64,000 nt of DNA, taken from contig CAWGYH010000009.1 of the NCBI GenBank assembly GCA_963826935.1, positions 3,854-67,853 on the forward strand, written 5' to 3'. Shown here piece by piece: positions 3,392 to 44,801 of the stretch. Both the position numbers and the translations under genes were made by a program. Position 1 is the stretch's first letter, and every line of letters begins with the position of its first letter. Below the pieces are notes generated by a model. It searched no databases and was not told where the DNA came from. It saw only the letters and a program-made list of their open reading frames with translations. Source of the stretch: an uncultured Chlamydiales bacterium. GTDB taxonomy: Bacteria; Chlamydiota; Chlamydiia; Chlamydiales; FEN-1388.

Positions 3392-3482
3392 AAATCAATC
3401 CTAAAATTGGCGCGGGGATTATAGACTCCAAGCTCTCGTAAACTCAAGAGGTTTCATCCACAATTTGGTGGCACCCCTCCGG

Positions 3483-3910
3483 GGCTGTGAAAAATGCGCG
3501 CGCCCGAAGGGTGTGGTGGCGATTAGACCAGATCACCGACCTTGAGGGAGGTGCTCTGGGCCATCATACCATTAAAAAACGCACCCCCGAAGCGGCATAG
3601 TGTTGTACATAATTATTTCTTGATAGACTTTGTGGCAATTTCAGTTCCGGAGGAACGTCTTAATAATAGCCCATGGTGTAGCCCCAAAGGGGCAAACCGT
3701 GGGTATGGCACAAAAAAACCATCAAGTCGCGTGAGCGACGACTTAATCCGTCGCTCACGCGACTCCAGGTTATTTTTTTACCAAATACCCACGGTTTGCC
3801 CCTTTGGGGCTACACCATGGGCTATTATTAAAGCGTTCCTCCGGAACTTGAGTGACAAGAAATAATTGTGTGCAACACTATGCCTTTCGGGAGTGCATTT
3901 TTTCACAGCC
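3483..3910. repeat. Large nested palindromic intergenic element (MITE/REP-like)
   Basis: Ends are GGCTGTGAAAAATGC and GCATTTTTTCACAGCC. Inner arms 3643-3706 and 3785-3848 are near-perfect reverse complements, 3594-3622 pairs with 3856-3884, and there is a central hairpin at 3726-3763. Confidence 0.9.
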
Positions 3911-4006
3911 TCATAGCGTAACAAGGCAAGAAATTTCATAAGAGCACTTGCGTTTTTTATGGGCCGTTAGCTATTTAGAGTGATTAGTGTAAAGAAAGGA
4001 CTTACA

Positions 4007-4651
4007 ATGCCCGAACAGACTGTCATTATTCTTCTTGGACCGCCAGGTGCGGGTAAAGGAACCCTTGCAGAGAAAATTTCAAAAGAAAAAGCGATTCCTC
4101 ATATATCTACGGGGGATATTTTTTATGAACAGCTCCGCAACGGCACAGAACATGGCCTGCATGCTCGGCACTATCTTGATAAAGGCCACCTTGTGCCTGA
4201 CGATCTTGTTCTAGACATAATCTACGACCGCGTACTGATGCCGGACTGCTCGAAAGGCTATATTTTAGATGGCATACCCAAAAACATCGCCCAGGTACAT
4301 GAAATCGAAGACCACCTTCGCGGCAAGGCTAATGTCAAGGTGATTAAACTTGATGTCAACGATGCTACTGCCACAAAACGGCTTGCGGGACGGCTTGTTT
4401 GCGAAAAGTGCGGCCACGTTTGGCATAAAGAGACCCACAATATTGCCAAGGAGGGCGTTTGCGACATTTGCGGCGGAAAAGTAGTCCAACGAAGCGACGA
4501 CACTCCGGAAGCGATAAAAGAGCGTCTTAAAGTATACCATGAGCAGACCGAGCCCATAGAAAACTACTATAAAGGTGTCGGTTTGCTGCAGGTTATCGAC
4601 GCTTCAAAATCACCGGAAGATGTGTTAGCAGATATTTTGCATGTACTCTAA
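4007..4651 (+). CDS. adk: Adenylate kinase family protein with Zn-binding LID (divergent NMP-binding residues)
   Basis: P-loop GPPGAGKGT, HISTGD, LVPDD, LID CEKC...CDIC and QRSDD. ATG at 4007 has an AAGGA Shine-Dalgarno. Confidence 0.85.
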   Translation: MPEQTVIILLGPPGAGKGTLAEKISKEKAIPHISTGDIFYEQLRNGTEHGLHARHYLDKGHLVPDDLVLDIIYDRVLMPDCSKGYILDGIPKNIAQVHEIEDHLRGKANVKVIKLDVNDATATKRLAGRLVCEKCGHVWHKETHNIAKEGVCDICGGKVVQRSDDTPEAIKERLKVYHEQTEPIENYYKGVGLLQVIDASKSPEDVLADILHVL

Positions 4652-4699
4652 AGAAGCGATTGGCTATAGTTTGGCGCCAATTTGCTGTTTTATGAGAAA

Positions 4700-6148
4700 A
4701 TGTCAGTACAACCTACATCCCTTTCTGCAACTACGACTCTTTTAGAAAATCTCGCAATAAGCGATGCATCGCTCTATCAGGGCTCTCTACGAGAAGTTCA
4801 GGCTAAAACCTTATATCATCTTCGTCAAGAACTACTCAAAAAGCGATCGCAAATTGAAGCAATTAATTTTACCCGTTTTGTCCACTCACTTCTTGCCTAT
4901 AGCCTGGTTTTACGAAAGGCGCCTCAGCAGACTATGGCCGTTTTTGGCGCTGCCTTTGTCTCTATAATCTGCAGCCCTATAGTACAGCTTGACCTTGCTT
5001 TACAGACGAAGACAACGAACTTTGTTAATTTGTACTCCGAACAGTCTCACGATAAGTGGAATGAGTGGAAAAATCTCTTAGAGATTGTCACCCACTTTCG
5101 CGAAAAACTGATCCTTGAGCCCCTTGTAGCACAGCTAGCTCTTGTGCTTCGCACCTATTATCAAGATGAAAACCCAACCTGTGATGATTTTGCCTTTGCA
5201 TTGGTGCGTCTTACAGAGCTTCGTTGGGCATTAGAGGGAAAGCAAAAAGAGCTGCTTAAACGAGCCGTCTTACTTAAAGAGTGGCATGCAATCGCACCTC
5301 CCGATGCGTACGAATATTCGCACCTTATGCATATGTTACAGGGGTTTTCGTGGCTTATCTCTGCCTCGGATGGGCCGGCAGCAAAAAATCGGTTGCCACC
5401 TTGGAGTGATGCGCGAAAGTTACCCCCGAACGTGCTTGGACAATTAATTCAGAAGATAAGTGAAGAGGACGGCAGCACAAAATTGGCACTATTGGAAAAG
5501 CTATTGCACGATCAAGAAGAGCGATATTTCTATGATATTTTGGAAAATGACCCCAAATTTATGCTAAGAGTGCTTCATTTTCTCGAAACCCCTAACCTTG
5601 CCTTTGATGACGCGGCATGGATTGATGCTCTTCACGAGGATGCCTGTTCCCTTTTTGTACGCATTGCTGCGGGTCACCCGGCAAAAGGATTTTTGCCGGA
5701 AATTCTTCTCCTTTTGCTCTCTTCTGAAATCACAGAAAAAAGACTCACCCTGCTCGTAAAGATTTGCCTGTTGCTTGATACCTTCTTTCTCACTGAAGAG
5801 TTTAAAAATAAGCTTTTTATGCAGCTTTGCAGCGCAAAATCTATTCAAGGCCTGCAAGCAGCTCTTCGCATCAGTCGATCGATCAACTGCTCGCAGCTCA
5901 GGCACGCCCTGGAACAACTTGAGGCATGCATCCCTGCAGGCGAAGATACGGCAAAAGAAGAGCTTAAGGCTATATTACAAGGGCTGCTCACAGCCTCTTG
6001 GTCTACAGCCGATATAGATAGCGAAAGCAGCGAAGAGCTGTCACACTCACTTAGACGGGTTGCAAGCATGCTTAGATGCCCAGAGATTACCCAAGAGCTT
6101 CTCCGCAGGAAGCTCTCAGGCTCTCATGATCTGACCAATTTTAAGTAG
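4700..6148 (+). CDS. Hypothetical all-helical, Leu-rich protein
   Basis: ORF of about 480 aa with a Ser/Thr-rich N-terminus. No motif recognised. Confidence 0.7.
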   Translation: MSVQPTSLSATTTLLENLAISDASLYQGSLREVQAKTLYHLRQELLKKRSQIEAINFTRFVHSLLAYSLVLRKAPQQTMAVFGAAFVSIICSPIVQLDLALQTKTTNFVNLYSEQSHDKWNEWKNLLEIVTHFREKLILEPLVAQLALVLRTYYQDENPTCDDFAFALVRLTELRWALEGKQKELLKRAVLLKEWHAIAPPDAYEYSHLMHMLQGFSWLISASDGPAAKNRLPPWSDARKLPPNVLGQLIQKISEEDGSTKLALLEKLLHDQEERYFYDILENDPKFMLRVLHFLETPNLAFDDAAWIDALHEDACSLFVRIAAGHPAKGFLPEILLLLLSSEITEKRLTLLVKICLLLDTFFLTEEFKNKLFMQLCSAKSIQGLQAALRISRSINCSQLRHALEQLEACIPAGEDTAKEELKAILQGLLTASWSTADIDSESSEELSHSLRRVASMLRCPEITQELLRRKLSGSHDLTNFK

Positions 6149-8486
6149 CTTTACGTCTTGGAGCTACAGTATCAGCAAGGCCTAAAAGGGCATCTGTGAT
6201 CTGTCCAGGTGGCCCGTCCAGAATTTCTGCTAACATGGATCTATCATGAAAGAGACCGCCTTGTTTTGAAAGGAGGCTGTCAGTCTTGCTTTGGGTGGCC
6301 CTGCTAGCAGCTTTCCATAACAGAATGGCTTCATTTGCGTCCTTGATGGCATTATCTGAGGCTTTCCACGCATTTTTCATTTCGTTCGGCGTACTATCAT
6401 ATGCATTTTTGGACATATCTAATGTTTTTTTAATGCCGAGTGTGTGCGGTATCAAATGCGTGAACAGAAAACGAGAATTGTGTTTGCGGATCGCTTTATC
6501 AGTTTCCATGCCAATAAATAAGCTTGCAAGTTCACCAAGATTTTCGTGATAGCTGTCGCTGAGGGATTCATAGCCTCTATCTTCCGGCCGCATCACTGCA
6601 GTTGAACCCAAGGCAAAATAGAGAGCGCTTGTTGCGAGGTAGTTTCCGGAGCGCGCAAGATTGATAGCGCTTTGGCAAAGGCTTTCCTTCATTTTGGCTC
6701 TTCTTTCGTGATCGGGTTCTCTAAGAAGCATGGCAGCTATGTCAAACCCGATATAGTTAATGCGTCGATCTAGTGGTATAAGACTTTGGTCAAGTCTCTT
6801 AAGAACTTCCCGTGCTTCGCCTCCCGTCTTGATTAAGTCGCCTTCACTATACTGCAATGCATCCATTTCTTTTTTTAGTTCGTAAGAGACAGCCTTTGTA
6901 AGCTCTTCTTCAAAGCGTTTGCTTGGCTTTCCGCGAGAGAGCCGATCGAGTATTTCTGTCCGGAGAATGGCGGTAGCAAGAGGATTTGCTCCCTCTATGA
7001 ATGGTTGTAAATCTACTCCGAAATTTTCCTGCAATAGCTCTACCCTGTGGTTCTGTAACAACTCTTGCAGTTTTGCAATATTGTCATCGTTTCTTTTTTT
7101 GATAGAGTTTAATGCTTTACTTGTTCTGATTTTAAATTGGCAGTAGAATTCTTTTATTTCCTCAGCAACTGCGTATTTAAGTTCATTGAATTTTTGTTCA
7201 ATTCGGTCTCTTTTCGCCTCTACATAAGCGAAATATTCCTTTTCGTCCTTTTGGATGCTGTCCAAGAGCTCTTTTGTTTGCTTATATAAGACTACATTAT
7301 TCACAAATCGGGGAGCTTCTCCTTCAGTGATTTCAATCCCCCCTAATTCAGGTAGAAGCAACCCCTCATCATCATCATCTTCAAAATCGATTCCTTGCTG
7401 TTTAAACTCTACAACTTCAAGATCTTCTGAATACTTCTGTGGTTTGGCTTCAGATTTTTTTAGTGGCGGAGCATCTTCGAGTTGCATTTTTTTAAGATCC
7501 AGTGCAGCTTGAATTTTTTTAAAAGTTTGGTTTGATGCTATAATCTCCTCTAGACTTGGGTCATTCGCAAGTTTTTTGCTTGCCACAGCAATTTCTTTGG
7601 TCCAACTTGTTAAGGCCTCTTCAAGGCCTAGTAATTTTTTTTGCCTATCTGTTAGCTCTTCTGTCCACCCCCCCCATTCATCACTACCAGCTAAGGTCTT
7701 TGCTCTGCTAACTTCGAGAGACAATGCCTGTATTTCTATCTTTAATTTTTCATCAGGCCGCAGCGGAACAGGAATCTTAGGAGGTGGTGGTCGAGTCGGC
7801 GTAGTTTGATCAGAAACTTCAGACATCGACTTTCGCCTATCCGAAACGTCTGGCGTGGGCTCTTTATTGCTTATCCAATCCGTGAACTTTTTCCATGCCA
7901 CGAGCAGTGTTTGAGCTACTGCTGTTGTGGGAATAGATGGTGGAGCTGGACGCCCGTTTTTTGGAGTAAGAAGATTTTTACCAATTTGTGCTGTCTCAGA
8001 AGTGGGTTTATTTTCCTCTTTTTTTATGATCTTGTATCCTTTGATTTGCGCATCTAGTTTTTCCATTTCCTTTAGATAAATATTATTTTCATCATGAGGA
8101 TCTAACATTCCTGATATGCTTTCGTTAAGATGGGCAAATTTAAAGTTTGGATCTTTTTGGAGGGCGATTATTCTCCTTTGGATAACACTAATAGCATCAT
8201 CAGGTGTAGAGATCACTACATCAGCTTTTTGTGGAGAGTCTTCAAGAGGTTCAATTTTTTTAATTAATTCGTCAATTTCTTTATGCTTACTTTCGAGTAT
8301 CAATTTGGGAAAAAAGTTGAATATTTTAGTAATTGGATTTGCTTTTCCAGCATCTTCTAGAGCGCTGATTTTAGTTGTAATTTCATCATTCAACTCTGTA
8401 AGTCTATCCTTCAATTTTTCTTGATGTTCCTTAGGTAATGGAGGAGGTAAATCAGCCGGCAATTGTTGATGTGACTCGACGTTCAT
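6141..8486 (-). CDS. Effector-like protein: Pro-rich, coiled coils, C-terminal RasGEF (CDC25)-like domain
   Basis: 781-aa ORF. The segment INYIGFDIAAMLLREPDHERRAK...ARSGNYLATSALYFALGSTAVMR...LGELASLF...IPHTLG follows the CDC25 pattern. The domain call is by eye. Confidence 0.65.
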   Translation of the reverse strand: MNVESHQQLPADLPPPLPKEHQEKLKDRLTELNDEITTKISALEDAGKANPITKIFNFFPKLILESKHKEIDELIKKIEPLEDSPQKADVVISTPDDAISVIQRRIIALQKDPNFKFAHLNESISGMLDPHDENNIYLKEMEKLDAQIKGYKIIKKEENKPTSETAQIGKNLLTPKNGRPAPPSIPTTAVAQTLLVAWKKFTDWISNKEPTPDVSDRRKSMSEVSDQTTPTRPPPPKIPVPLRPDEKLKIEIQALSLEVSRAKTLAGSDEWGGWTEELTDRQKKLLGLEEALTSWTKEIAVASKKLANDPSLEEIIASNQTFKKIQAALDLKKMQLEDAPPLKKSEAKPQKYSEDLEVVEFKQQGIDFEDDDDEGLLLPELGGIEITEGEAPRFVNNVVLYKQTKELLDSIQKDEKEYFAYVEAKRDRIEQKFNELKYAVAEEIKEFYCQFKIRTSKALNSIKKRNDDNIAKLQELLQNHRVELLQENFGVDLQPFIEGANPLATAILRTEILDRLSRGKPSKRFEEELTKAVSYELKKEMDALQYSEGDLIKTGGEAREVLKRLDQSLIPLDRRINYIGFDIAAMLLREPDHERRAKMKESLCQSAINLARSGNYLATSALYFALGSTAVMRPEDRGYESLSDSYHENLGELASLFIGMETDKAIRKHNSRFLFTHLIPHTLGIKKTLDMSKNAYDSTPNEMKNAWKASDNAIKDANEAILLWKAASRATQSKTDSLLSKQGGLFHDRSMLAEILDGPPGQITDALLGLADTVAPRRKAT

Positions 8487-8640
8487 AGGGACCTCAAATA
8501 AAAAGGTTTATATCTTTATTGTACCTATAACAAATATTTAATATAAAGAAAATAGTTTATTTTTCCAGGACGAAACAGAGAAGGGCCTCTCTTATGGGGC
8601 CAGCTATGATAATGATGCCATAGAGACAAACAGGCAGAAG

Positions 8641-9009
8641 CTACCCAATAATTAAGTTGACAGCAAACGAGGCGACAACGAGAGCGGCTGTAACTACTTT
8701 TGCCGCCATGGTTGGATCCCCTACCAGTAAAGAGATTGCAGGATAAAGGGCTAAAGCTACCACTACGTGAGAAAGTAAAAGTCTTCCTGTAGCCTCGCCT
8801 GTCCAGCCCAATGCCTTAAATAGCTCGTCTACAGCCTTTGCAACGAGAGCAGTAGCTGCGACTGCCATTCCGGTATGGCCAAAATAGCTATAGGCCCTGC
8901 CGGCTTGGTCCTTGGCAAAATTTTTAAATAAGGCATAGCCGCCGATTATCCCAACGGTATATCCGCCGGCTGCTGCATAGGTGATATGTTTTATTGCTGA
9001 AAATGTCAT
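8641..9009 (-). CDS. Small hydrophobic membrane protein
   Basis: 122 aa with 3-4 Ala/Gly/Val-rich hydrophobic segments and an AGGA Shine-Dalgarno. Confidence 0.7.
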   Translation of the reverse strand: MTFSAIKHITYAAAGGYTVGIIGGYALFKNFAKDQAGRAYSYFGHTGMAVAATALVAKAVDELFKALGWTGEATGRLLLSHVVVALALYPAISLLVGDPTMAAKVVTAALVVASFAVNLIIG

Positions 9010-9020
9010 AAAATTAATCC

Positions 9021-9407
9021 TTAAGTTTGCGCATAAACGGCATAAAAACAGAGCAGGAGGCCGATAATGATAGGCAATATAGAAAGCTTTCTATCAAACG
9101 CTATAAGCCTTTCTGTAGCGGCAATAGTTTTTTCCTGAACAAAAAGGGTCAAAACGCCCTTTAGCACCTGCAGATAGCCAATGATCGTTAAAAGGATAGG
9201 GATTTCAAAAGACCAGCTTCTATAGGTGCTTAGAATGGTAAAGCCAATAAGAAGATTGAATGCCCCGCCAAATACCATCAACGGCGGCGTATTTTTTACC
9301 GCATTCCAAAAGCGATGCGCCTCATCATTTCGAAAAAGCACCCAAAGTCCCATAACAAAAAAATAGGGCCCAAAAATACGTGAAAGCCACAGTTCAGGTG
9401 CGTCCAT
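9021..9407 (-). CDS. Four-TM membrane protein of unknown function
   Basis: 128 aa with four hydrophobic helices and a GAGGA Shine-Dalgarno. Confidence 0.75.
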   Translation of the reverse strand: MDAPELWLSRIFGPYFFVMGLWVLFRNDEAHRFWNAVKNTPPLMVFGGAFNLLIGFTILSTYRSWSFEIPILLTIIGYLQVLKGVLTLFVQEKTIAATERLIAFDRKLSILPIIIGLLLCFYAVYAQT

Positions 9408-9472
9408 AATTTCCTCCTATAGATGAACATTTTTTTCACCATAGGAGGAGTAGGGGGAATTTGTCAATTGCT

Positions 9473-18600: not shown

Positions 18601-18854
18601 GAGTCTGTGAAAAAATACTTTTTTTTCGACCGCAGGTCTTTGGAGTGCTGCGATTTTTCGCAGCTTTAGATCCGACCACACACCTTTACTTCATTACCGC
18701 CCAAGCTTACAAAACACATCTACATCAATCGGTAGACGTGCTTTGTGAGCTTGAGTGATCTTGAGATTAAGGTGTGTGGTCGGAGCTAAAGCTGCGAAAA
18801 ATCGCAGCACTCCAAAGACCTGCGGTCGAAGAAAACGTATTTTTTCACAGCCTC
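18601..18854. repeat. Palindromic element, family A copy 1 (about 254 bp, about 87-bp terminal inverted repeats)
   Basis: GAGTCTGTGAAAAAATAC...CGACCACACACCTT pairs with AAGGTGTGTGGTCG...GTATTTTTTCACAGCCTC. Homologous to the copies at 44554 and 62748, in the opposite orientation. Confidence 0.92.
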
Positions 18855-18991
18855 GAAGAACTGAAATAGTCATAAAGGCGATCATGCAACGCTATGCTGC
18901 TTTGGGCTTTTCTCTCATTATTTCGGGAAATGCATTTTGAAATTGGGGTCGAAATAGGACTGCATATATAATAGATAGGCATTGTATCTCT

Positions 18992-19288
18992 ATGATAAAG
19001 GTTTTTAAGATGCCATTTACAATTGACGGACAGTGGGTGCCTAGCAAAACGACTTCAAAAGCGCCTCAAAAACCTGTTAAGGTTCGTTTAGTTAAACGTG
19101 GAAAGAGCGTTCTTACGGTTATTTTGAATTTAAACATGTCTAGCGGTGAGCTCGCAAGCATTGCTTCAAACTTAAAGAAGAAATTGGGCTGCGGCGGCGC
19201 TGTCAAAGAAGAGAACATTGAGATCCAAGGAGACAAGGTTTCGCTTGTGATACAACACCTTGCTGAAGCAGGAATTAAATCTTCATAA
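18992..19288 (+). CDS. yciH: Translation initiation factor SUI1/YciH family protein
   Basis: KRGKSVLTVI, LKKKLGCGGAVK and IEIQGD. The true start may be ATG 19010. Confidence 0.85.
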   Translation: MIKVFKMPFTIDGQWVPSKTTSKAPQKPVKVRLVKRGKSVLTVILNLNMSSGELASIASNLKKKLGCGGAVKEENIEIQGDKVSLVIQHLAEAGIKSS

Positions 19289-19336
19289 GAGAAAAAGTTG
19301 GACTGTGATGTGAGAACGCTTACAGTGAATATTTTT

Positions 19337-19750
19337 TTATGAAAATCTTTTCTTTAAATCTTCTAAGAGAGCTGCCTTTGCATCGGGAGGATATGGTGTA
19401 CGAGTAGGATGGTCCCATGCGGTTTTAGGCCAGGCAGGGTCCGTTTCGAAGCGGGCGATGACGTGGATATGAAGCTGCGCTATTTTGTTGCCGATTGCAG
19501 CCACGTTGATGTGAGTTGGGTTAAAATGTTCCTGAAGTACCCTTTGAGCCAAGTCTAGCTCGCGCATCAACTGCTGTTGATCAGCCGAAGAAAGATCCAT
19601 CAGCTTTGTAGCTTGCGCGCGCTGAGGGACTAAGATAAGCCAGGGAAAATGCATCTCATCTTGAAGCAGCACAAGCGATAGAGGCAGTGCACATACTTGT
19701 GTCTTATTTGTAAGCTTTTCATGTAGCTGAAATTCCATGCCAAATAGCAT
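19337..19750 (-). CDS. HIT family protein
   Basis: FPWLILVP and INVAAIGNKIAQLHIHVIARFETDPAWP. The true start may be 19738. Confidence 0.88.
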   Translation of the reverse strand: MLFGMEFQLHEKLTNKTQVCALPLSLVLLQDEMHFPWLILVPQRAQATKLMDLSSADQQQLMRELDLAQRVLQEHFNPTHINVAAIGNKIAQLHIHVIARFETDPAWPKTAWDHPTRTPYPPDAKAALLEDLKKRFS

Positions 19751-19812
19751 ACAAATAGGCTATAAATATCTGCAAGAGATACATGGGAAAGCCTTACGCC
19801 TCAAGAGCAAGT
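19751..19812 (+). repeat. 62-bp deletion remnant of the dctP-like locus
   Basis: 19751-19780 is identical to 23143-23172, and 19782-19812 is identical to 23900-23930. Confidence 0.9.
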
Positions 19813-19853
19813 TCAAGACGCGCTGTTTTAAAGAGGGAGGGTGAAAACATGAT

Positions 19854-20468
19854 CTATAAAGCTTTTGCATTTTGGGTTGCAGAAGCTGCAATCCAAGCTT
19901 TATCATGGCGTGTTTCCCAGAGATTGCGAGCTACTAAACCTACAAGTTCTCGCAGTAAAGGAGATAGTGCGCTTTCGCGAAAACGTCTAATTCCAAGTAA
20001 ACCGCGACATGCGGCACGGGCTCCTTCTACAGAGTAATACTCTCCAATTTCTTTTAGTAAGAGTTGTGTTTTACTTTTATCCTCAGCATTAATGGCAAAT
20101 TGACTGGGGAGTGGTTTTGGGTTCCACGATAAGCAAAGGAGCACTAGCTCTTTTAATTTCGTTAAGGTTGGAGGTAAAGATTTTAGCTTATTTCTCCACA
20201 GTGACAAGTGTTGAAGTTTTTGAAGATTGCCGATTTGTGGTGGAATACAAGTGAGCTGATTACAACATATATCAAGAACTCTTAAGTTGCCAAGTTCCAG
20301 TATTTGATTTGGTATTCTATCCATATTATTATCGGGGATAGCAAGATGCTCAATCATATCGCGTTCTTGTGTCGTCATAGCTCCTAAACGGGCTGCGACA
20401 TCATCTGTAGTTAGTCCCTCACCGGCCCAAATCACAACGAATGGATTATTATTTCTTAGTGGATCCAT
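19854..20468 (-). CDS. Leucine-rich repeat protein with a C-terminal F-box-like motif
   Basis: Typical LRRs LRVLDICCNQLTCIPPQIGNL and LQHLSLWRNKLKSLPPTL. C-terminus LSPLLRELVGLVARNLW. Confidence 0.85.
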   Translation of the reverse strand: MDPLRNNNPFVVIWAGEGLTTDDVAARLGAMTTQERDMIEHLAIPDNNMDRIPNQILELGNLRVLDICCNQLTCIPPQIGNLQKLQHLSLWRNKLKSLPPTLTKLKELVLLCLSWNPKPLPSQFAINAEDKSKTQLLLKEIGEYYSVEGARAACRGLLGIRRFRESALSPLLRELVGLVARNLWETRHDKAWIAASATQNAKAL

Positions 20469-20718
20469 TACATAACTCCGTATGCTTTATTAAACAAAAA
20501 CTTTATCAGAGTGTGATTTTTTTCGCAAGGTTATTTAACATTATGCTTTAACTTGTAAACTCAAAGGGCTTGTAATTTTTCGGCGGCGCCCTCTTCAGAG
20601 AGCTAATTCTTGCTCTCTTATTCGTTTTAATAAAAAGCAGCAAGAAAAATCTCCTAGCTAAAAAGTTGTAAAGTCGAGATAATCACTTGAAAAATCTATC
20701 TGTGGACTTTACAACTCT

Positions 20719-22731
20719 ATGAATTCATTAGCCCCATTAGCCTCACCAGATTTTGCAAAAGATCGCGTTGCACAACGTAATGCATTTCAACAACTTTGCA
20801 CTCACAACAGCGAAGAACGAACAAAAGTAATCGCTTTCTTTACTGAGGTTTTCACTCAGCTAATGCATCAAAAAGAACCAGACCCTAAGCACTGGCAAAC
20901 AGTTAAAAATACAATATCTCTTTTTGAGGCAAAAACTCCTTCTGAGGGGCGTAATGAAAAATGGTCCGACCTTTCTTACAATAGTAAAGGATGGCTTTTC
21001 ACATGCTTTATTCCTGCGCTTGTCATGGCTGCTGGAATTGCACACGTTAACCCAACAGATACCCTTTATGCTCGCTACTATTATGGCGTAGATAATTTGC
21101 AACCACACCCACTCTGGGGTCCAAGGAAGATTGCTCCCAGATTGTTAGAGGCCCTTAGTACACCTCAAGCTATGAAACATGAACTTCACGAGATCTTCTA
21201 TGATGCCCTTAGCGACGACTTAGTCCAACAAGGCCCCATCATAGAAATTGATGGAGCCGTGCCACTTAACCGCGATCAGCTATTCTATGTAACTAATACA
21301 ACAAGCTCAAGACCACCTCTTGATACGCTTACAAAAACTATCACAATCGACGGCATAACATATCCCCTTGCATGCCTTTTGGGAAGATCAAGCCGGGCTC
21401 AAGGTACGTATGCATGCAATAGATCTATTGAAAGCGTTGCCACATTGTTTCAAAAGCTACTCCCGGATGTAGTGCTAAGGACTATCGTTCTCAACTACTC
21501 TGCCCTTTCCTACGTCGACTTTAACGCCTACATGCAAACGCAAGTGCCAGTAGGCGCCCTTAATGCACTACGCCCTCTTTGCGTCAAGCTATCAAAAGCA
21601 ATCTCCACAATCGGCGGGGCCGAAGTAGCAAGAGATGATCTTATGGCCCGATTCCTCAGGCACTGGCTCAAAAGCGACCCTACATACTGGAATGTAACAG
21701 TGAATGACACTCTCATCACTCTTTCCTGCACAGACGCAGAAAAAGCAACGGATACGTTTATTCAGATTATGAAGCAGGCACCAAACTTTACATTTGAACT
21801 CCAAATAGACCTTCCAAAACTGCCCGAAGCAGTTCGTGCTCAAGTTACAAGTGATCTGCCAATTACACGCCTCTATTTAAGAAAAAAAGACAACAGCTGC
21901 CGAATTGATGAAGAAGTAGATCCTCTTGTAGCGCTACTTCCTCGCTTAAAACAAGTCCACGTAGGTAGCGTTGTAAGAGGACTAGAGTCGTTGCAAGAGG
22001 CGCCACGGCTAAAAAGCCTAAAAATTTCCTGGCTTGGTGCAGCAAAAAGCAGAACACATAGGCTACCCCCAGTACTTGAAACATTTGATGTTTACCTTAG
22101 CGGTAACGGTACTACTGAGGCGAAGCAAACCTTTAAATTTCCGCCTACATTAAAAACACTTACACTCTCGACCCTTGACCCTATTAAATTTGACCTGTCT
22201 TCTCTGCCGGTAGGTATTAAAGAGGTGGATATTCATTGCCCCTCAGTCTCGGTGGCAACCCTTGTTCCAAGGCTGTCAGCACTTTGCAACCTCACAAAAC
22301 TAACAGTAATTCTTAATCCCTGCACCGCTCATCGCCCCTTAACGCTTGAACAATGCGACCAGCATGAGCCATTGCGCATTCTAGAAAAGACGCCCCTGCT
22401 CGAAGAGCTCTGGCTTAAAGGAGTAGTAACTCTTGATGATCTTGGAGCCTCTCGTCATAACCATGTTCGCAAAATCACCTTCTTGCCCTATCCTACAGAA
22501 GCCTACCCCGCTGTAGGCTGGCTACCTGCGCTACAAAAAATCGGCTCACTTAACGAGTTTTGCACGATAGGCCCCTATGGCCCGGATTACGGCATGCAAG
22601 GAAATATGGCAAAAAAAGAGCTTTTTGCACTGGCCCAAGCTGCCCTATCGCAAAAAGTCCCCTTCACAATCAACTCCAAAAAACCAGAATTCTTAGTAAC
22701 CGACCTAAAAACTACAATGTATTGGTACTAA
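20719..22731 (+). CDS. Hypothetical 670-aa protein with C-terminal LRR/FNIP-like repeats
   Basis: LPRLKQVHV, APRLKSLKI, LPPVLETFDV, FPPTLKTLTL, LPVGIKEVDI and LCNLTKLTV. Confidence 0.75.
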   Translation: MNSLAPLASPDFAKDRVAQRNAFQQLCTHNSEERTKVIAFFTEVFTQLMHQKEPDPKHWQTVKNTISLFEAKTPSEGRNEKWSDLSYNSKGWLFTCFIPALVMAAGIAHVNPTDTLYARYYYGVDNLQPHPLWGPRKIAPRLLEALSTPQAMKHELHEIFYDALSDDLVQQGPIIEIDGAVPLNRDQLFYVTNTTSSRPPLDTLTKTITIDGITYPLACLLGRSSRAQGTYACNRSIESVATLFQKLLPDVVLRTIVLNYSALSYVDFNAYMQTQVPVGALNALRPLCVKLSKAISTIGGAEVARDDLMARFLRHWLKSDPTYWNVTVNDTLITLSCTDAEKATDTFIQIMKQAPNFTFELQIDLPKLPEAVRAQVTSDLPITRLYLRKKDNSCRIDEEVDPLVALLPRLKQVHVGSVVRGLESLQEAPRLKSLKISWLGAAKSRTHRLPPVLETFDVYLSGNGTTEAKQTFKFPPTLKTLTLSTLDPIKFDLSSLPVGIKEVDIHCPSVSVATLVPRLSALCNLTKLTVILNPCTAHRPLTLEQCDQHEPLRILEKTPLLEELWLKGVVTLDDLGASRHNHVRKITFLPYPTEAYPAVGWLPALQKIGSLNEFCTIGPYGPDYGMQGNMAKKELFALAQAALSQKVPFTINSKKPEFLVTDLKTTMYWY

Positions 22732-22777
22732 AGTTAGGGATATTGTAGCCCGCAGCGTCCGCAAATCGCACATCGCA

Positions 22778-23137
22778 GGGCCGGCCCCAATGGTGTCAAC
22801 TTAAGAAAATTTATATTAGTTCTGGAGAGGTTGTGAAATGCAGATTCTCTCCCGAAGGGAGAGATGGCGATTAGCCCAGATCACCGACTGGAAGGAGGTG
22901 CTCTGGGAAAAATGGCATAATAAAATATTGCACCCCCGAAGCGGGGTGCTGGATCATATTGTTTGGATAATATCCAGCACCCCGTTTCGGGGGTGCATAT
23001 TTGATCCACACGGGTTCCCAGAACACCTCCCTCTGGTCGGTGGTCTGGGCTAAATGCCATCTCTCCCTTCGGGAGAGAAAAAACAGCGGCCAGAGCTGCT
23101 ATAAATTTCCTTAAGTTGACACCATTGGGGCCGGCCC
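22778..23137. repeat. Nested palindromic intergenic element (about 360 bp)
   Basis: Outer 38-bp inverted repeat GGGCCGGCCCCAATGGTGTCAACTTAAG(A/G)AAATTTATA with one mismatch. Middle arms start TTCTCTCCCGAAGGGAGAG, inner arms start GCACCCCCGAAGCGGGGTGCTGGAT. Shares modules with 3483-3910. Confidence 0.92.
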
Positions 23138-37258: not shown

Positions 37259-40200
37259 ATCTTCGCTCTTTTTAGAGACGCTCTTTCCGGCCCTTAGCAA
37301 CAGGCTCATGAAGACGGAACTTCCCGAAGGAAAATATTCTGAAATTGTTGGCGTGGAACATATTGACAAGGTGATTGAAATAGATCAGTCCCCAATAGGC
37401 CGCACTCCCCGCTCAAATCCTGCTACCTATGTAAAGCTCTTTGATGACATCCGCGCGCTTTATGCAAAGCTTCCTCAAAGTAAAGCTAAGGGCTACACTG
37501 CCGGCCGCTTTAGCTTTAACGTAAAGGAGGGCTCCTGCACCGAATGCCACGGCATGGGACAGATTAAGCTTGATATGGACTTTTTAGAGGACTCTTGGGT
37601 CGACTGCCCTGTCTGCCAAGGCAAGCGCTTTGATGCCGAAACGCTTGAAGTGCGCTATAAAGAAAAAAACATACAAGATGTGCTTGAAATGGATGTAAAA
37701 GAGGCAAAAGAGCTCTTTGCCAATATCCCCCACATCCAGACAAAGCTTGACATGCTCGAGCGCGTCGGCCTTGACTATCTAAAGATTGGCCAGGCCTCAA
37801 CGACGCTTTCCGGCGGCGAAGCGCAGCGCATAAAACTTGTAAGAGAGCTTGCGCGTCCCGACACAGGAAAAACGCTCTACATCTTCGATGAGCCAACAAC
37901 AGGCCTTCATTTTCACGATATGAGCCACCTTATTGAGGTGCTTCAGGCGCTTGTTTCAAAAGGAAATACGGTCGTTGTGATCGAACACAATATCGACCTG
38001 ATTAAAACGTGCGACTGGATTATTGAAATGGGCCCCGAAAGCGGCGATTTGGGCGGTAAAATTATTGCTACAGGCACGCCTGAAGCCATTTCAGAGATGG
38101 AGTGCGCGACTGGTGAAATTTTAAAGAAGCCTATCACAAAATCCAGAAAGGTGCCAAAAACGCTTGAAGAGAGCAGTGCCATCACAGTGTATGGCGCCTG
38201 CCAAAACACCTTAAAAAATGTCGATGCCATCATACCGCGCGGCAAGATGACATGCGTTACAGGCCCCTCCGGCAGCGGCAAGAGCTCTTTTGCCTTTGAA
38301 ACAGTCTTTGCAGAGGGCTCTCGGCGCTATGTAGAGTCTTTATCTCCCTACATCCGCCAGTTTGTCAGGCAGATGCCAAAGCCAAAGGTGGATAGAATCG
38401 ATGGCCTTTCACCCTCTGTTGCGATCGAACAGCGCCTGCATGCTGCAAACCCGCGCTCTACTGTCGGCACAATGACAGAAGTGTATGACTACCTTCGCAT
38501 ACTCTATGCGCGTGTAGGTATTCCTCACGATCCAAAGACAGGCGCCCGCATTCAGGCAATAAGCAAGGAGCATGTTGTCGATAGGATTTTACACTATCCC
38601 GAAGGCGAAAAGCTCCATATTATGGCTCCCATTGAGCTAAGGCGTACAGAAAACTTTACAGACCTTGCAGAACGGCTGCAAAAGCAGGGCTTTTTACGCA
38701 TCCGCCTGAATGGCACCTTCTATGAGCTTGGTCAAGAGACCATTGCCTACGATCCAAAACGCAAAAACGAACTTTTTTTAGTTGTCGACCGACTGGTTGT
38801 TGACCCATCTATGAAGCATCGCCTCTTTGAAGCGGTCTCTACAGCATCCGTCATAGGCAAGCAGAAGGTATGGGTAATGCGCGAGAAAAAGGATGTCTTC
38901 TTTAACCTTGCCTTTGCCGTTGAAGAGACGGGAGAATCCTACCCCGAAATCACCCCTCAAACCTTTGCGTTTAACACCCAATATGGCATGTGCCCTGACT
39001 GCCAGGGTCTTGGCTTTGTATGGGGCGTGGACTTTAGCTCGCTAAAAGCTGTGGCAAAGATGACGCCGCTTGAGCTTGTACGGCTTTTGTGGGGAGAGTG
39101 GCCAAGCACGTTTTCCCGCCAAGTACTCGCATCACTTTTTAAAGTGCTTGAGATAAGCCCAAAAGAATCCATATCAGATCTTGCTCCCGATAAGCTGCAG
39201 CTCTTTATGAACGGTTCAAAAACTGCTGTGGAAGTATTAGTTGATGATGTTCCCGTAAAGTTTCGCTGGCGAGGGGTAAATAATGCTCTTGCTACCCTTT
39301 TACAGCTAAGACACGACAGCTTTAGCGATGAGATGCCCCTGCCTGAAGAGTGGGAGGCTGCCCTTCGTGAAAATGAGTGTGCAAGCTGTTCAGGAACACG
39401 CCTTAACGCCCTTGCGCGCCATGTGACTATCGACAAGGTCTCTATTGCGGATCTTGCCAGCATGTCGATTAAAGAGGCATCCGGGTTTGTAAAGAAAATT
39501 AAGATTATAGATAAAAAAGACCTTACGCTGATGCAGGTGTATGATGAAATTGTACAGCGATTGCACTTTTTAGATTCTATCGGGCTTTCATACCTTCAGC
39601 TTTCGCGCATGGCCTCTACTCTTAGCGGCGGCGAGGCAGAGCGCGTACGCCTTGCTCGGCAAATTGGCTCCGGTCTTACAGGACTGCTCTATGTGCTCGA
39701 TGAGCCAAGCATAGGGCTACACCCGCAGGACTCAAAACGGCTGGTATCGGCACTTCACACGTTAAAAGAGCTTGGCAACACCCTCTTAATCGTAGAACAT
39801 GACCCGCAGATTATCCAAGAGGCAGATCATATCATCGAATTTGGTCCGGGATCGGGCGTAAAAGGGGGCGAGATTGTTGCTCAAGGATCGCTTGCAGAAA
39901 TCAGCAGCAATCCAGCTTCTCTTACTGCGAAATATCTGAAGGAGCAGGCATCTGTCTCTTCGGGTAGCAAGATAAAAGATCAGGGCAGTATCATTATAAA
40001 GGATGCTACGCTGCACAACCTCCAAAAGGTTACCGTTGAGCTTCCCAAGGGTGCCTTTACCTGCTTAACAGGCGTCTCGGGATCCGGTAAATCGTCGATA
40101 CTTGAGGGCATTCTTTTAGATGGGATAAAGCAGGCGATAAATGGCCGAAAAAGCGAAGTTGTGGCTAAAAACTATGAACTTCGCGGCATCGAAGATATTA

Positions 40201-40973
40201 AACAGGTGGTCTGGATGGACCAGCGTCCAATCGGACACACTACTCGAAGCGATGTTGCAACCTTTACCGACGTTTTAACGCCCATCCGCCACTTCTTTGC
40301 CCAGCTTCCCGAGGCAAAGATAAAAGGCATGCAGCCCAAAAATTTTAGCGCCTACCACCGCAAGGGCGCCTGCAGCCACTGCTGGGGCTTTGGGTATAAA
40401 AAGGTTGAGATGTCCTTCTTGCCATCGGTAAAGGTGCCCTGCCCGCAGTGCAAGGGCATGCGACTAAATCCCCTTTCCCTTTCAATTACCTATCAGGGCA
40501 AAAATATAGGCCAGATTCTTCAGATGAATGTAGATGAGCTGAGGATTCTCTTTGCAAACCACCCTAAAATCATACGCATGCTTGATGTATGCGCAGAAGT
40601 TGGCCTTGGCTATCTAAATCTTGGGCAGGAGATGCAGACACTCTCCGGCGGTGAAATCCAGCGCATGAAACTTACGCGCGAGCTTGTAAAGCAGCCTCGC
40701 GGCAAGTGCCTCTACCTCTTCGACGAGCCTACGACTGGGCTGCATCCGCAGGAGATCAAGCTGTTATTAGAAATTATTAGAAAACTTATAGCTAAAGGCC
40801 ATACTGTCATTTCTATTGAACACAATCTGGACTTCATTTCGGCTGCCGATCATATTGTAGATTTAGGACCGGGAGCAGGAGATGAGGGCGGCCGGGTGAT
40901 TGCCGCAGGAACGCCTACCGAAATTATGAAAAGTAAAGCTTCCGTTACAGGCAAATATTTACATAAACGATGA
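37086..40973 (+). CDS. uvrA: Excinuclease ABC subunit A, remainder of the chlamydial double-length UvrA
   Basis: The +1 frame continues TGAYLSGRKKI...HNNLKNVDV and contains three more Walker A / LSGGE sets. The joined product is about 1885 aa. Confidence 0.9.
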   Translation, partial: TGAYLSGRKKIQVPKTPRKGSGKEIILKKASHNNLKNVDVTLPLGCFIAITGVSGSGKSSLFLETLFPALSNRLMKTELPEGKYSEIVGVEHIDKVIEIDQSPIGRTPRSNPATYVKLFDDIRALYAKLPQSKAKGYTAGRFSFNVKEGSCTECHGMGQIKLDMDFLEDSWVDCPVCQGKRFDAETLEVRYKEKNIQDVLEMDVKEAKELFANIPHIQTKLDMLERVGLDYLKIGQASTTLSGGEAQRIKLVRELARPDTGKTLYIFDEPTTGLHFHDMSHLIEVLQALVSKGNTVVVIEHNIDLIKTCDWIIEMGPESGDLGGKIIATGTPEAISEMECATGEILKKPITKSRKVPKTLEESSAITVYGACQNTLKNVDAIIPRGKMTCVTGPSGSGKSSFAFETVFAEGSRRYVESLSPYIRQFVRQMPKPKVDRIDGLSPSVAIEQRLHAANPRSTVGTMTEVYDYLRILYARVGIPHDPKTGARIQAISKEHVVDRILHYPEGEKLHIMAPIELRRTENFTDLAERLQKQGFLRIRLNGTFYELGQETIAYDPKRKNELFLVVDRLVVDPSMKHRLFEAVSTASVIGKQKVWVMREKKDVFFNLAFAVEETGESYPEITPQTFAFNTQYGMCPDCQGLGFVWGVDFSSLKAVAKMTPLELVRLLWGEWPSTFSRQVLASLFKVLEISPKESISDLAPDKLQLFMNGSKTAVEVLVDDVPVKFRWRGVNNALATLLQLRHDSFSDEMPLPEEWEAALRENECASCSGTRLNALARHVTIDKVSIADLASMSIKEASGFVKKIKIIDKKDLTLMQVYDEIVQRLHFLDSIGLSYLQLSRMASTLSGGEAERVRLARQIGSGLTGLLYVLDEPSIGLHPQDSKRLVSALHTLKELGNTLLIVEHDPQIIQEADHIIEFGPGSGVKGGEIVAQGSLAEISSNPASLTAKYLKEQASVSSGSKIKDQGSIIIKDATLHNLQKVTVELPKGAFTCLTGVSGSGKSSILEGILLDGIKQAINGRKSEVVAKNYELRGIEDIKQVVWMDQRPIGHTTRSDVATFTDVLTPIRHFFAQLPEAKIKGMQPKNFSAYHRKGACSHCWGFGYKKVEMSFLPSVKVPCPQCKGMRLNPLSLSITYQGKNIGQILQMNVDELRILFANHPKIIRMLDVCAEVGLGYLNLGQEMQTLSGGEIQRMKLTRELVKQPRGKCLYLFDEPTTGLHPQEIKLLLEIIRKLIAKGHTVISIEHNLDFISAADHIVDLGPGAGDEGGRVIAAGTPTEIMKSKASVTGKYLHKR

Positions 40974-44553: not shown

Positions 44554-44801
44554 GAGGCTGTGAAAAAATACGTTTTCTTCGACCGCAGGTCTTTGGAGTG
44601 CTGCGATTTTTCTCGAGCTTTTAATTTTGCACACACCTTAATCGCAAGATCGCTTAAGGCTCACAAAGCACCTCTACCGATTCATGTAGATGTGTTTTGT
44701 AAGCTTGGGCGGTATGAAAGTAAAGGTGTGTGGTCGGAGTAAAAGCTCGAGAAAAATCGCAGCACTCCAAAGACCTGCGGTCGAAGAAAACGTATTTTTT
44801 C
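44554..44801. repeat. Palindromic element, family A copy 2
   Basis: GAGGCTGTGAAAAAATACGTTTTCTTCGACCGCAGG at the left and CCTGCGGTCGAAGAAAACGTATTTTTTC at the right (tip eroded). The core is homologous to the 18601 and 62748 copies. Confidence 0.92.

Follow-up and report, generated by a model that had tools for sequence, protein, structure and literature searches.

Two long composite palindromes lie at positions 3483-3910 and 22778-23137 of a 64,000-nucleotide stretch of DNA from an uncultured Chlamydiales bacterium (contig CAWGYH010000009.1 of assembly GCA_963826935.1), here called the window, to which all positions without a prefix refer. We read both loci as nests of independent mobile palindromic elements and not as palindromes that grow by the addition of modules, and we put the probability of this reading at roughly 0.78. 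We observed distinct repeat families and their copy numbers, target-site duplications (TSDs), an enrichment of hairpins at the sites of insertion, a resident insertion sequence (IS) with matching ends, Y1 transposase genes adjacent to some of the palindromes, and intact as well as empty paralogous forms of the composites elsewhere in the genome. From these observations we infer which enzymes would have moved the elements designated T1, C, B and D below, the order in which the events may have occurred, and the way in which one palindrome arm was lost at 3483-3910.

The host genome (3.71 Mb in 14 contigs, with an estimated completeness of 91.6%) is rich in short repeats. Words of 13 nt that occur at least 6 times occupy 221,741 bp in 1480 islands, or ~6% of the genome. 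Coordinates outside the window carry a contig prefix (C2, C3, C5, C9 and so on), all of these being contigs of this same genome (G000), and the window itself lies in C9. BLAST comparison of the two loci with their own genome returned 147 alignments for 3483-3910 and 232 for 22778-23137. Alignment depth changed in steps, at approximately 3483, 3595, 3643, 3848 and 3884 along the first locus and at approximately 22778, 22826, 22846, 23078 and 23137 along the second. Both composites are therefore made of units that differ in copy number. Automatic segmentation of the repeats (3264 segments in 1083 clusters) was too fragmented to serve as a catalogue of modules, and hand-picked markers were used instead.

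Architecture of the two composite palindromes

The locus at 3483-3910 was divided into the following parts.

3483-3497: left terminal inverted repeat (TIR_A) of the outer element, GGCTGTGAAAAATGC, matching the ends of a 1624-bp IS1182-family IS and of the family A MITEs (miniature inverted-repeat transposable elements)
3498-3516: small terminal hairpin of the CGCCC-GAAG-GGTG type, preceding the B core; such a hairpin stands at 76 of 86 B-core ends
3517-3594: left arm of the B core, shared with 22865-22944 and ending within the sub-hairpin GCACCCC-CGAAGC, the seat of the C element
3595-3883: C element, 289 bp, with ends GCATAGTG...CACTATGC and with D inside it
3643-3848: D palindrome, 206 bp, the short form of a 3-kb element at C3:286753-289784
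3726-3763: central hairpin of D
3884-3910: what is left of the outer element on its right side (right TIR_A and the 3' half of the terminal hairpin), by comparison with the intact loci C5:56400-57010 and C2:162840-165320

An earlier note, made from the letters of this DNA alone, had described the locus as having family A termini around a different interior, and the description holds. The termini of both elements are of the GGCTGTGAAAAA type, as are those of the family A copies at 18603-18852, 44562-44801 and 62747-63002 in the window. The note had also placed a segment common to the two loci at 3503-3592 and 22850-22945, and BLAST aligned 3503-3595 with 22851-22944 at 81% identity (96 columns, E = 2.8e-15), identity reaching 89% between 3503-3540 and 22851-22888 and 84% between 3571-3595 and 22920-22944. 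We likewise found, as it had reported, that this shared B module is represented at 3483-3910 by its left arm only and that other stems lie inside, in the form of three nested inverted repeats (3594-3622/3856-3884, 3643-3718/3773-3848 and 3706-3740/3749-3783). The rest of the B right arm is absent, and the right end of C abuts the 3' half of the B terminal hairpin. Folded as single-stranded DNA the locus forms a near-continuous hairpin (-166.7 kcal/mol, z = -27.5, with 0 of 100 shuffles as good).

Two intact relatives carry the parts that are missing here. At C5:56400-57010 a complete B element holds C with D inside it (written C[D]) in its second central sub-hairpin, with the TSD CACTTCGG. At C2:162840-165320, C[D] sits in the first sub-hairpin with the TSD CCGAAGCG, and a group II intron lies in D. 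The TSD of C in B is 8 bp long at both of these B[C[D]] loci. The left junction of 3483-3910 is the same as that at C2:162840-165320, and the C copy in the window has no TSD, its left flank being CCGAAGCG and its right flank CTTTCGGG. This comparison leads us to conclude that the apex and right arm of B are gone from 3483-3910. The locus would thus be a TIR_A-bounded B element that was hit by C[D] in a central sub-hairpin and that lost its B apex and right arm either afterwards or during the insertion. Either an insertion of the IS1272 kind, in which a stem-loop is replaced, or a deletion or recombination that took place later between copies of a hairpin may explain the loss. The C[D] part (286 bp) has six further copies in the genome at 92-93.5% identity.

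The second locus was resolved into the following parts.

22778-22787: left copy of the 10-bp TSD of the T1 shell, GGGCCGGCCC
22788-22825: left arm of the T1 MITE shell, a 38-bp repeat starting with CAATGGTGTCAACTTAAG
22826-22864: diverged TIR_A-like end GGTTGTGAAATGC and hairpin TCTCTCCC-GAAG-GGAGAGA
22865-23059: complete B core with both arms and with central sub-hairpins at 22929-22959 and 22967-22997
23060-23089: right hairpin (loop inverted to TTCG) and diverged right TIR_A-like end
23090-23127: right arm of the T1 shell
23128-23137: right copy of the 10-bp TSD, GGGCCGGCCC

In agreement with the earlier note, the B module here has both arms (22845-22909 pairs with 23015-23079 over 65 nt at 89%) and is wrapped by a further inverted repeat, which we located at 22778-22825 and 23090-23137 (92%). 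The outer repeat measured 48 nt and not the 38 nt given previously because GGGCCGGCCC stands on both sides; the 48-nt arms are the 10-bp palindromic TSD plus the 38-bp repeat. This locus also folds as single-stranded DNA into a near-continuous hairpin (-148.8 kcal/mol, z = -22.8, with 0 of 100 shuffles as good). The whole 340-bp composite recurs at C5:129490-129848 (96%) and C2:82732-83076 (97%), with one more partial copy, and the TSDs of these further copies differ, being GGGCCGGGGC and GCCCCAGGCC, respectively. Full copies at 96-97% identity with TSDs of their own indicate that the composite was copied as a fixed unit; at 22778-23137 a T1 shell encloses a B-type element, and the whole has been copied to at least three sites. 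Nesting in four layers, T1[C[D[IS]]], is seen at C5:131895-133886.

The T1 shell also occurs without B. It was found empty at C5:89534-89675, where it is 142 bp long with a single central hairpin, and it was found with a G core bounded by a perfect 20-bp TSD of the central hairpin (for example at C5:405778-406166). The empty shell may be either the B-containing form minus the core between its two hairpins or a sign that B integrates at hairpins by another route. The probable succession of events would be the shell first, then B, then loss of the core and lastly G.

We considered whether repeats might have been collapsed or chimerically joined during assembly at either locus. The assembly is a 14-contig draft with ~6% short repeats, and read support is limited to the left part of 3483-3910: the four read runs contained at most a fraction of 0.24 of the sampled words, no read contig crosses the entire locus, and 3914-4200 was without cover. 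Against an artefact, unitigs of 151 nt from two metagenome runs, which may represent the source sample of the genome, match the window with 0 mismatches at 3450-3600 (flank, TIR_A, B and C) and at 3529-3679 and 3579-3729 (B, C and D), and so cross the left B/C and C/D junctions without error. Both composites also stand between unique genes within a 212-kb contig, and equivalent architectures exist at other loci. Misassembly, which the earlier note had named as a concern, is thus answered by reads over the left part of the first locus (3450-3729), and we regard it as very improbable overall.

Element families and their insertion sites

The TIR_A terminus, searched as a 12-mer with at most 1 mismatch, has 273 matches in the genome. 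Five TIR_A pairs lie exactly 1624 bp apart and are copies of an IS with the ends GGCTGTGAAAAATG, and 60 bounded short elements begin and end likewise. All five copies encode the same 448-aa product (100% identity), which reaches 300.3 bits with NF033551, the NCBIfam model for IS1182 (cut-off 270), and contains the Pfam domains DUF772 and DDE_Tnp_1_6. On the basis of these shared ends we identify the family A termini as the inverted repeats that bound a resident IS of the IS1182 family, one that looks recently active. The TIR_A elements are short, non-coding and present in many copies, with size classes at 247-252 bp, and are MITEs of this DDE-type IS. One of those in the window was resolved as follows.

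18603-18852: family A MITE, 250 bp, with TIR_A ends and the 3-bp TSD GAA in a GTTCC-GAA-GAAC site

Direct 3-bp TSDs were found at 31 of the 60 TIR_A-bounded elements, where ~1 would be expected by chance. Inverted 3-nt flanks were found at 11, and 18 had neither, five of these 18 being IS copies, which have a 4-bp repeat. All five IS copies occupy the same GTGA/TCAC site in the central hairpin of D, at loci with different flanks. We were able to reconstruct 36 empty TIR_A sites (29 distinct), in which the duplicated triplet lies in or beside the loop of a hairpin. Stems of at least 5 bp surround the TSD at 13 of the 29 distinct sites and occur at 4.6% of 20,000 random sites; with stems of at least 7 bp the corresponding values are 6 of the 29 and 0.4%. 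The measure counts perfect stems and so undercounts the B sub-hairpins, which have one mismatch. Read by eye, the sites follow the pattern YC-NNN-GR, which fits either a short symmetric sequence preference or true recognition of structure. A scan of the genome contigs revealed no relative of the IS transposase, and in related bacteria only 4 of 40 genomes gave matches, which were weak (26-42% identity). Separately, we noted an IS481-like IS with a 414-aa frame inside family A MITEs at C4:105165-107026, C5:743210-745073, C9:92154-94128 and C12:29555-31414.

Three further families are marked by longer TSDs. There are 95 T1 ends with the CAATGGTGTCAACTTAAG core (at most 3 mismatches), and 22 of 28 T1 pairs have a direct TSD of 9-10 bp in a GC-rich site; the targets look like GC-rich terminator stems followed by runs of T. 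C pairs carry a TSD of 7-8 bp inside CACCCC-loop-GGGTG hairpins in five of eight cases, and 11 of 13 pairs of family K (291 bp) show a 9-bp TSD. Just one long unit is bounded by T1 ends, and it is a nest that contains the IS1182-family IS and not a cognate autonomous element; within the assembly PF01609 (DDE_Tnp_1) matched only the four copies of a second IS1182-like element.

Family G is distinguished by the length of its duplications. Its copy in the window is as follows.

14993-15269: G MITE of 239 bp (15012-15250), directly after the stop codon of mutS, with a complete 19-bp stem-loop repeated in direct orientation on either side (14993-15011 and 15251-15269)

Direct flanking repeats of 17-28 bp are present at 17 of 32 G elements, the longest in 300 random controls being 10 bp, and in each row read by eye the repeat is the entire target stem-loop. 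Insertion of G regenerates the target on both sides, which fits the tandem array at C2:80054-80821, where three G elements are separated by one 22-bp hairpin; at C9:169636-170815, G and B elements alternate and are separated by a 20-bp hairpin. No G pair more than 485 bp apart exists in the genome, and the second IS1182-like element was rejected as a partner for G, its ends being unlike those of G. Full copies of G were not found in 25 relatives searched at E<=1e-20, a strict cut-off applied to a set in which many genomes are fragmented.

The B core has 86 ends genome-wide. The sequence immediately outside them is TIR_A in 36 cases, a T1 shell in 7, G ends in 5, A ends in 2 and other sequence in 36. 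The parts of the composites therefore do recur in other combinations, and the earlier note's description of them as nested and modular stands; a failure to recur was what it had said would count against it. The hairpins that flank B cores are inverted, 70 of 76 loops reading the same way towards the core, and within the T1 shell the stems of these flanking hairpins are the shell's own hairpin stems. We also tried the B core as a DDE-type MITE with a long, G-like TSD and rejected this, the flanking hairpins being inverted and not direct.

D has 62 arms genome-wide. Its central hairpin has elsewhere been struck by the 1624-bp IS (five copies), by a group II intron (four copies, all four in the apical loop) and by a G MITE (one copy). 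The 3-kb long form at C3:286753-289784 consists of a left arm, a tandem two-domain Y1 gene (C3:286887-287801), a group II intron and a right arm, so that the D arms enclose a Y1 gene as in an IS200/IS605-type element with short derivatives. Y1_Tnp has 13 matches in the genome. Seven Y1 genes are single-copy (six of ~150 aa and the tandem two-domain gene), and all seven directly adjoin a repeat of 3-60 copies. Thus two B halves abut the Y1 gene at C5:245617-246078, and family F shows a RAYT-like layout at C5:926230-927460, where the Y1 gene (C5:926792-927307) stands between eight tandem 66-bp two-hairpin units and two inverted ones. All three of the small or tandem Y1 proteins that were scanned pass an IS200/IS605 transposase model (68-101 bits, cut-off 55). 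Judged by this adjacency, B, D and F resemble the short derivatives or clients that HUH enzymes have in REPIN-RAYT or IS200-type systems. The transposase carrying the same modules, of the HUH or DDE type, that the earlier note had suggested looking for was thus encountered twice, as the IS1182-family IS with family A termini and as the single-copy Y1/HUH genes abutting B, D and F.

Other transposase-related genes were noted in passing. Four proteins of ~320 aa (C4:73556, C4:78934, C5:841431 and C5:845814) have an N-terminus like that of transposases associated with repetitive extragenic palindromes (REPs); the one that was scanned scored 72.8 bits against a cut-off of 80, and its C-terminus weakly resembles the DnaA DNA-binding domain. 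IS605-type TnpB (4 copies) and IS91-type elements (5 copies) are also present in the genome.

Probable nested insertion and its alternatives

These families suggest how the composites may have arisen. TIR_A MITEs would insert in the loops of short hairpins with a 3-bp TSD, the T1 shell would be a MITE that enters GC-rich, near-palindromic sites with a 10-bp TSD, C would enter CACCCC-loop-GGGTG hairpins with a TSD of 7-8 bp, and B and D would each be tied to a single-copy Y1/HUH gene of the IS200/IS605 type. As each element carries several stem-loops and the transposition systems appear to favour stem-loops or short palindromes, the elements would be expected to land in one another. The composites would remain symmetric because the insertions fall in hairpins that lie at the host palindrome's apex or close to it, and a composite could then move as one unit by means of its outermost ends.

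A different explanation is that the palindromes grow or swap parts without transposition, by template switching, fold-back copying or recombination at small shared hairpins. It would account for the T1 shell being found empty, with B and with G, the break always falling at the same hairpin, and for a 47-bp element at C5:730970 that consists only of TIR_A, a hairpin and TIR_A. The inverted hairpins around B cores, with stems matching the host shell, also agree with it, as do the reverse-complement flanks at 11 of 60 TIR_A elements and at the C copy in the window, which are what symmetrisation of a palindrome would give; moreover, the hairpin copies in the two arms are near-direct repeats, between which deletion or exchange should be easy. 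However, most scorable junctions carry direct TSDs that are specific to the family (31/60 for TIR_A, 22/28 for T1, 11/13 for K, 5/8 for C and 17/32 for G), whole composites have been copied with new TSDs, the G core in the T1 shell has a perfect direct TSD of 20 bp, and a matching intact IS and adjacent HUH genes are present. The inverted flanks, too, are expected from the published stem-loop-replacing insertion of IS1272 and TnSha1. We consider growth without transposition unlikely as the general explanation.

The interpretation offered in the earlier note fared less well than its description of the loci. Growth by symmetric addition or exchange of modules finds little support, given the TSDs at the junctions, and the missing arm at 3483-3910 appears to be a secondary loss and not a stage of growth; a small part of the proposal, the exchange of cores, survives in the shell that is found empty, with B or with G. 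The note's view that these palindromes are not copies of a fixed MITE largely did not hold, as both the 22778 composite and C[D] have been copied as fixed units, and what it took for a possibly undescribed modular repeat system is better described as nested insertions of known kinds of mobile element.

A number of results weigh against nested insertion. At the two loci of the window the T1 insertion alone is directly marked by a TSD: the ends of 3483-3910 lack a clean 3-bp TSD and fall in the class with neither type of flank, the C copy within it has none, and the B element inside the T1 shell has no clean 3-bp TSD either. Genome-wide, the TIR_A family includes the 11 of 60 elements with inverted flanks and 13 non-IS elements with neither type of flank. 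No TSD was seen when the flanks of B cores were read by eye, and the inverted orientation of the flanking hairpins makes a DDE route for B unlikely. The association of B with a Y1 enzyme is drawn from the adjacency of the gene, and the REP-associated model NF047646 (cut-off 80) gave 29.3 and 55.1 bits for two of the scanned Y1 proteins, the third having none at E<=0.001. We found no autonomous partner for T1, K, C or G in the 14-contig, 91.6%-complete assembly, and their mobility by DDE-type enzymes is suggested by their ends and TSDs. A single shell that is found empty, with B or with G would require an extra step, presumably loss of the core or its exchange at the shared hairpin. Finally, the congeners are only 66-77% identical to this genome in anchor genes, and their empty spacers therefore do not show the hairpins that existed before insertion.

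Of the 8 congeners, 7 contain pieces of the 22778 element (T1 ends and B core), as do 2 other genera of the family; one further match in the order is weak. The spacer downstream of mutS contains no element in three congeners (G002, G007 and G008), a D-like palindrome in G003 (L058) and an F-like one in G001 (L061). These D-like and F-like palindromes indicate that the families have long been present in the genus and use sites of the same kind. The spacer upstream of adk is short and empty in G001, G002, G003 and G008. An orthologue of the gene upstream of 22778 was not found in the 8 congeners by DNA search, and there is therefore no orthologous empty site for that locus.

Lastly, we asked whether the composites could be mainly structures selected by the host, such as bidirectional terminators, mRNA stabilisers or protein-binding sites, that resemble one another through shared function. 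Both elements are intergenic and fold very stably, the T1 targets resemble GC-rich terminator stems with T runs, and one G copy directly follows the mutS stop codon. On the other side, a scan of the window with Rfam at the gathering threshold returned 0 matches, and the TSDs, the matching transposases and the variable occupancy of spacers in the congeners all point to mobility, any function being secondary. Selection by the host as the main explanation seems to us improbable, and we retain nested insertion.

Some other features of the window were noted during this work. Arrays of a 9-nt unit (AAAGGACMW) run into their own reverse complement at 51104-51188 and 53960-54103 and so form palindromes; segments similar to these arrays form a cluster of 157, which is among the largest repeat clusters of the genome. 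At 11703-12071, within an open reading frame on the minus strand (11641-12294), a 123-bp unit occurs three times in tandem (94-99% identity). Diverged direct repeats with ABC-ATPase-like motifs at 35602-35683/38447-38528 and 36847-40744 suggest two adjacent UvrA-like paralogues. A 204-aa leucine-rich-repeat protein is encoded at 19854-20468 on the minus strand, with weak matches, all far under the cut-offs, to the leucine-rich-repeat regions of type III effectors.

Relation to known systems and significance

Targeting of hairpins by relatives of IS1182 has already been published. IS1272 and TnSha1, both of this family, enter hairpins whose sequences are unrelated, removing part of the hairpin and leaving no TSD (PMC4923244, PMC5678879), and according to a review cited in both, some IS1182 members target palindromes. 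The resident IS described here belongs to the same family, and the IS and its MITEs likewise sit in stem-loops of differing sequence. Replacement of a stem-loop, as described in those papers, would leave symmetric flanks without a TSD, such as those at 11 of our 60 TIR_A elements. The model in PMC5678879 draws stem-loop replacement, duplication of the entire stem-loop and duplication of the loop only as possible outcomes; TIR_A would correspond to the loop-only outcome and G to the whole-stem-loop outcome. There are also clear differences. TIR_A elements usually show a 3-bp duplication of the loop and not a deletion of the stem-loop, so that they do not behave as replacing elements; the targets here are mostly hairpins of other mobile elements; the transposase is only a distant relation of anything searched, with 38% as the best identity among 40 relatives; and duplication of the entire stem-loop belongs to G, a separate family. 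We did not find a documented case of whole-stem-loop target duplication in the literature.

REPs as targets of IS elements, and REPIN-RAYT systems, are likewise in print (PMC1525189, PMC3116915 and PMC3333891). The arrangement here is similar in that single-copy Y1/HUH genes are flanked by their own high-copy palindromic family and in that palindromic repeats serve as landing sites for an IS and a group II intron. It differs in that the small Y1 proteins pass the IS200/IS605 model and not the REP-associated one, in that each repeat has several sub-hairpins and a length of 180-260 bp, as against 20-40 bp for REPs, and in that D has a 3-kb form with a gene between its arms, an arrangement closer to that of an IS with short derivatives.

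Nested MITEs occur in plants and among the small dispersed repeats and MITEs of cyanobacteria, where short non-coding elements with terminal inverted repeats have inserted into one another with TSDs and composites have been mobilised as units. A literature search for nested MITEs in bacteria found no such paper. In contrast to those nests, the ones described here have up to four or five layers within 430-2000 bp, and the layers come from mechanistically different systems (DDE, HUH-linked and group II intron). A further possible parallel is offered by IS231A and the MIC231-type elements of the IS4 family, which prefer GGG(N)5CCC targets and have TSDs of 10-12 bp. The 10-bp TSDs of T1 in GGNCCGGNCC-like sites resemble these, but the sole PF01609 matches in this genome are the four copies of the second IS1182-like element.

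What is unusual, then, is the depth and density of the nesting and a MITE family whose insertions double a complete stem-loop of 17-28 bp. We raise tentatively, and at less than even odds, the idea that DNA stem-loops act as a common currency of integration, to which at least four unrelated systems would home: an IS1182-type DDE transposase, an enzyme of G that cuts at the feet of stem-loops, the Y1/HUH-linked palindromes and the group II intron. Each insertion would seed further stem-loops, giving self-similar palindromes and tandem arrays. As part of this idea, the variable TSD of G, equal to the full length of the target palindrome, would indicate, from events in vivo, that what a transposase reads is an extruded hairpin or cruciform and not a sequence.

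The interest of these loci lies in the density and depth of nesting, in the convergence of several systems on hairpins and in the whole-stem-loop duplication by G, which, if true, would mean that the spacing of a transposase's staggered cut can be gauged from DNA structure. The genome provides a natural data set for structure-dependent targeting in the IS1182 family, with tens of insertions whose empty sites can be reconstructed, where earlier descriptions come mainly from staphylococci. It is also a small genome in which the same hairpins bring together HUH-linked palindromes, DDE-type MITEs and a group II intron. Annotators should take note that a long perfect palindrome in a genome of this kind is a stack of several elements, to be split before it is classified. 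What had appeared to be a new modular repeat system thus becomes a readable case of mobile elements using one another's hairpins as landing pads.

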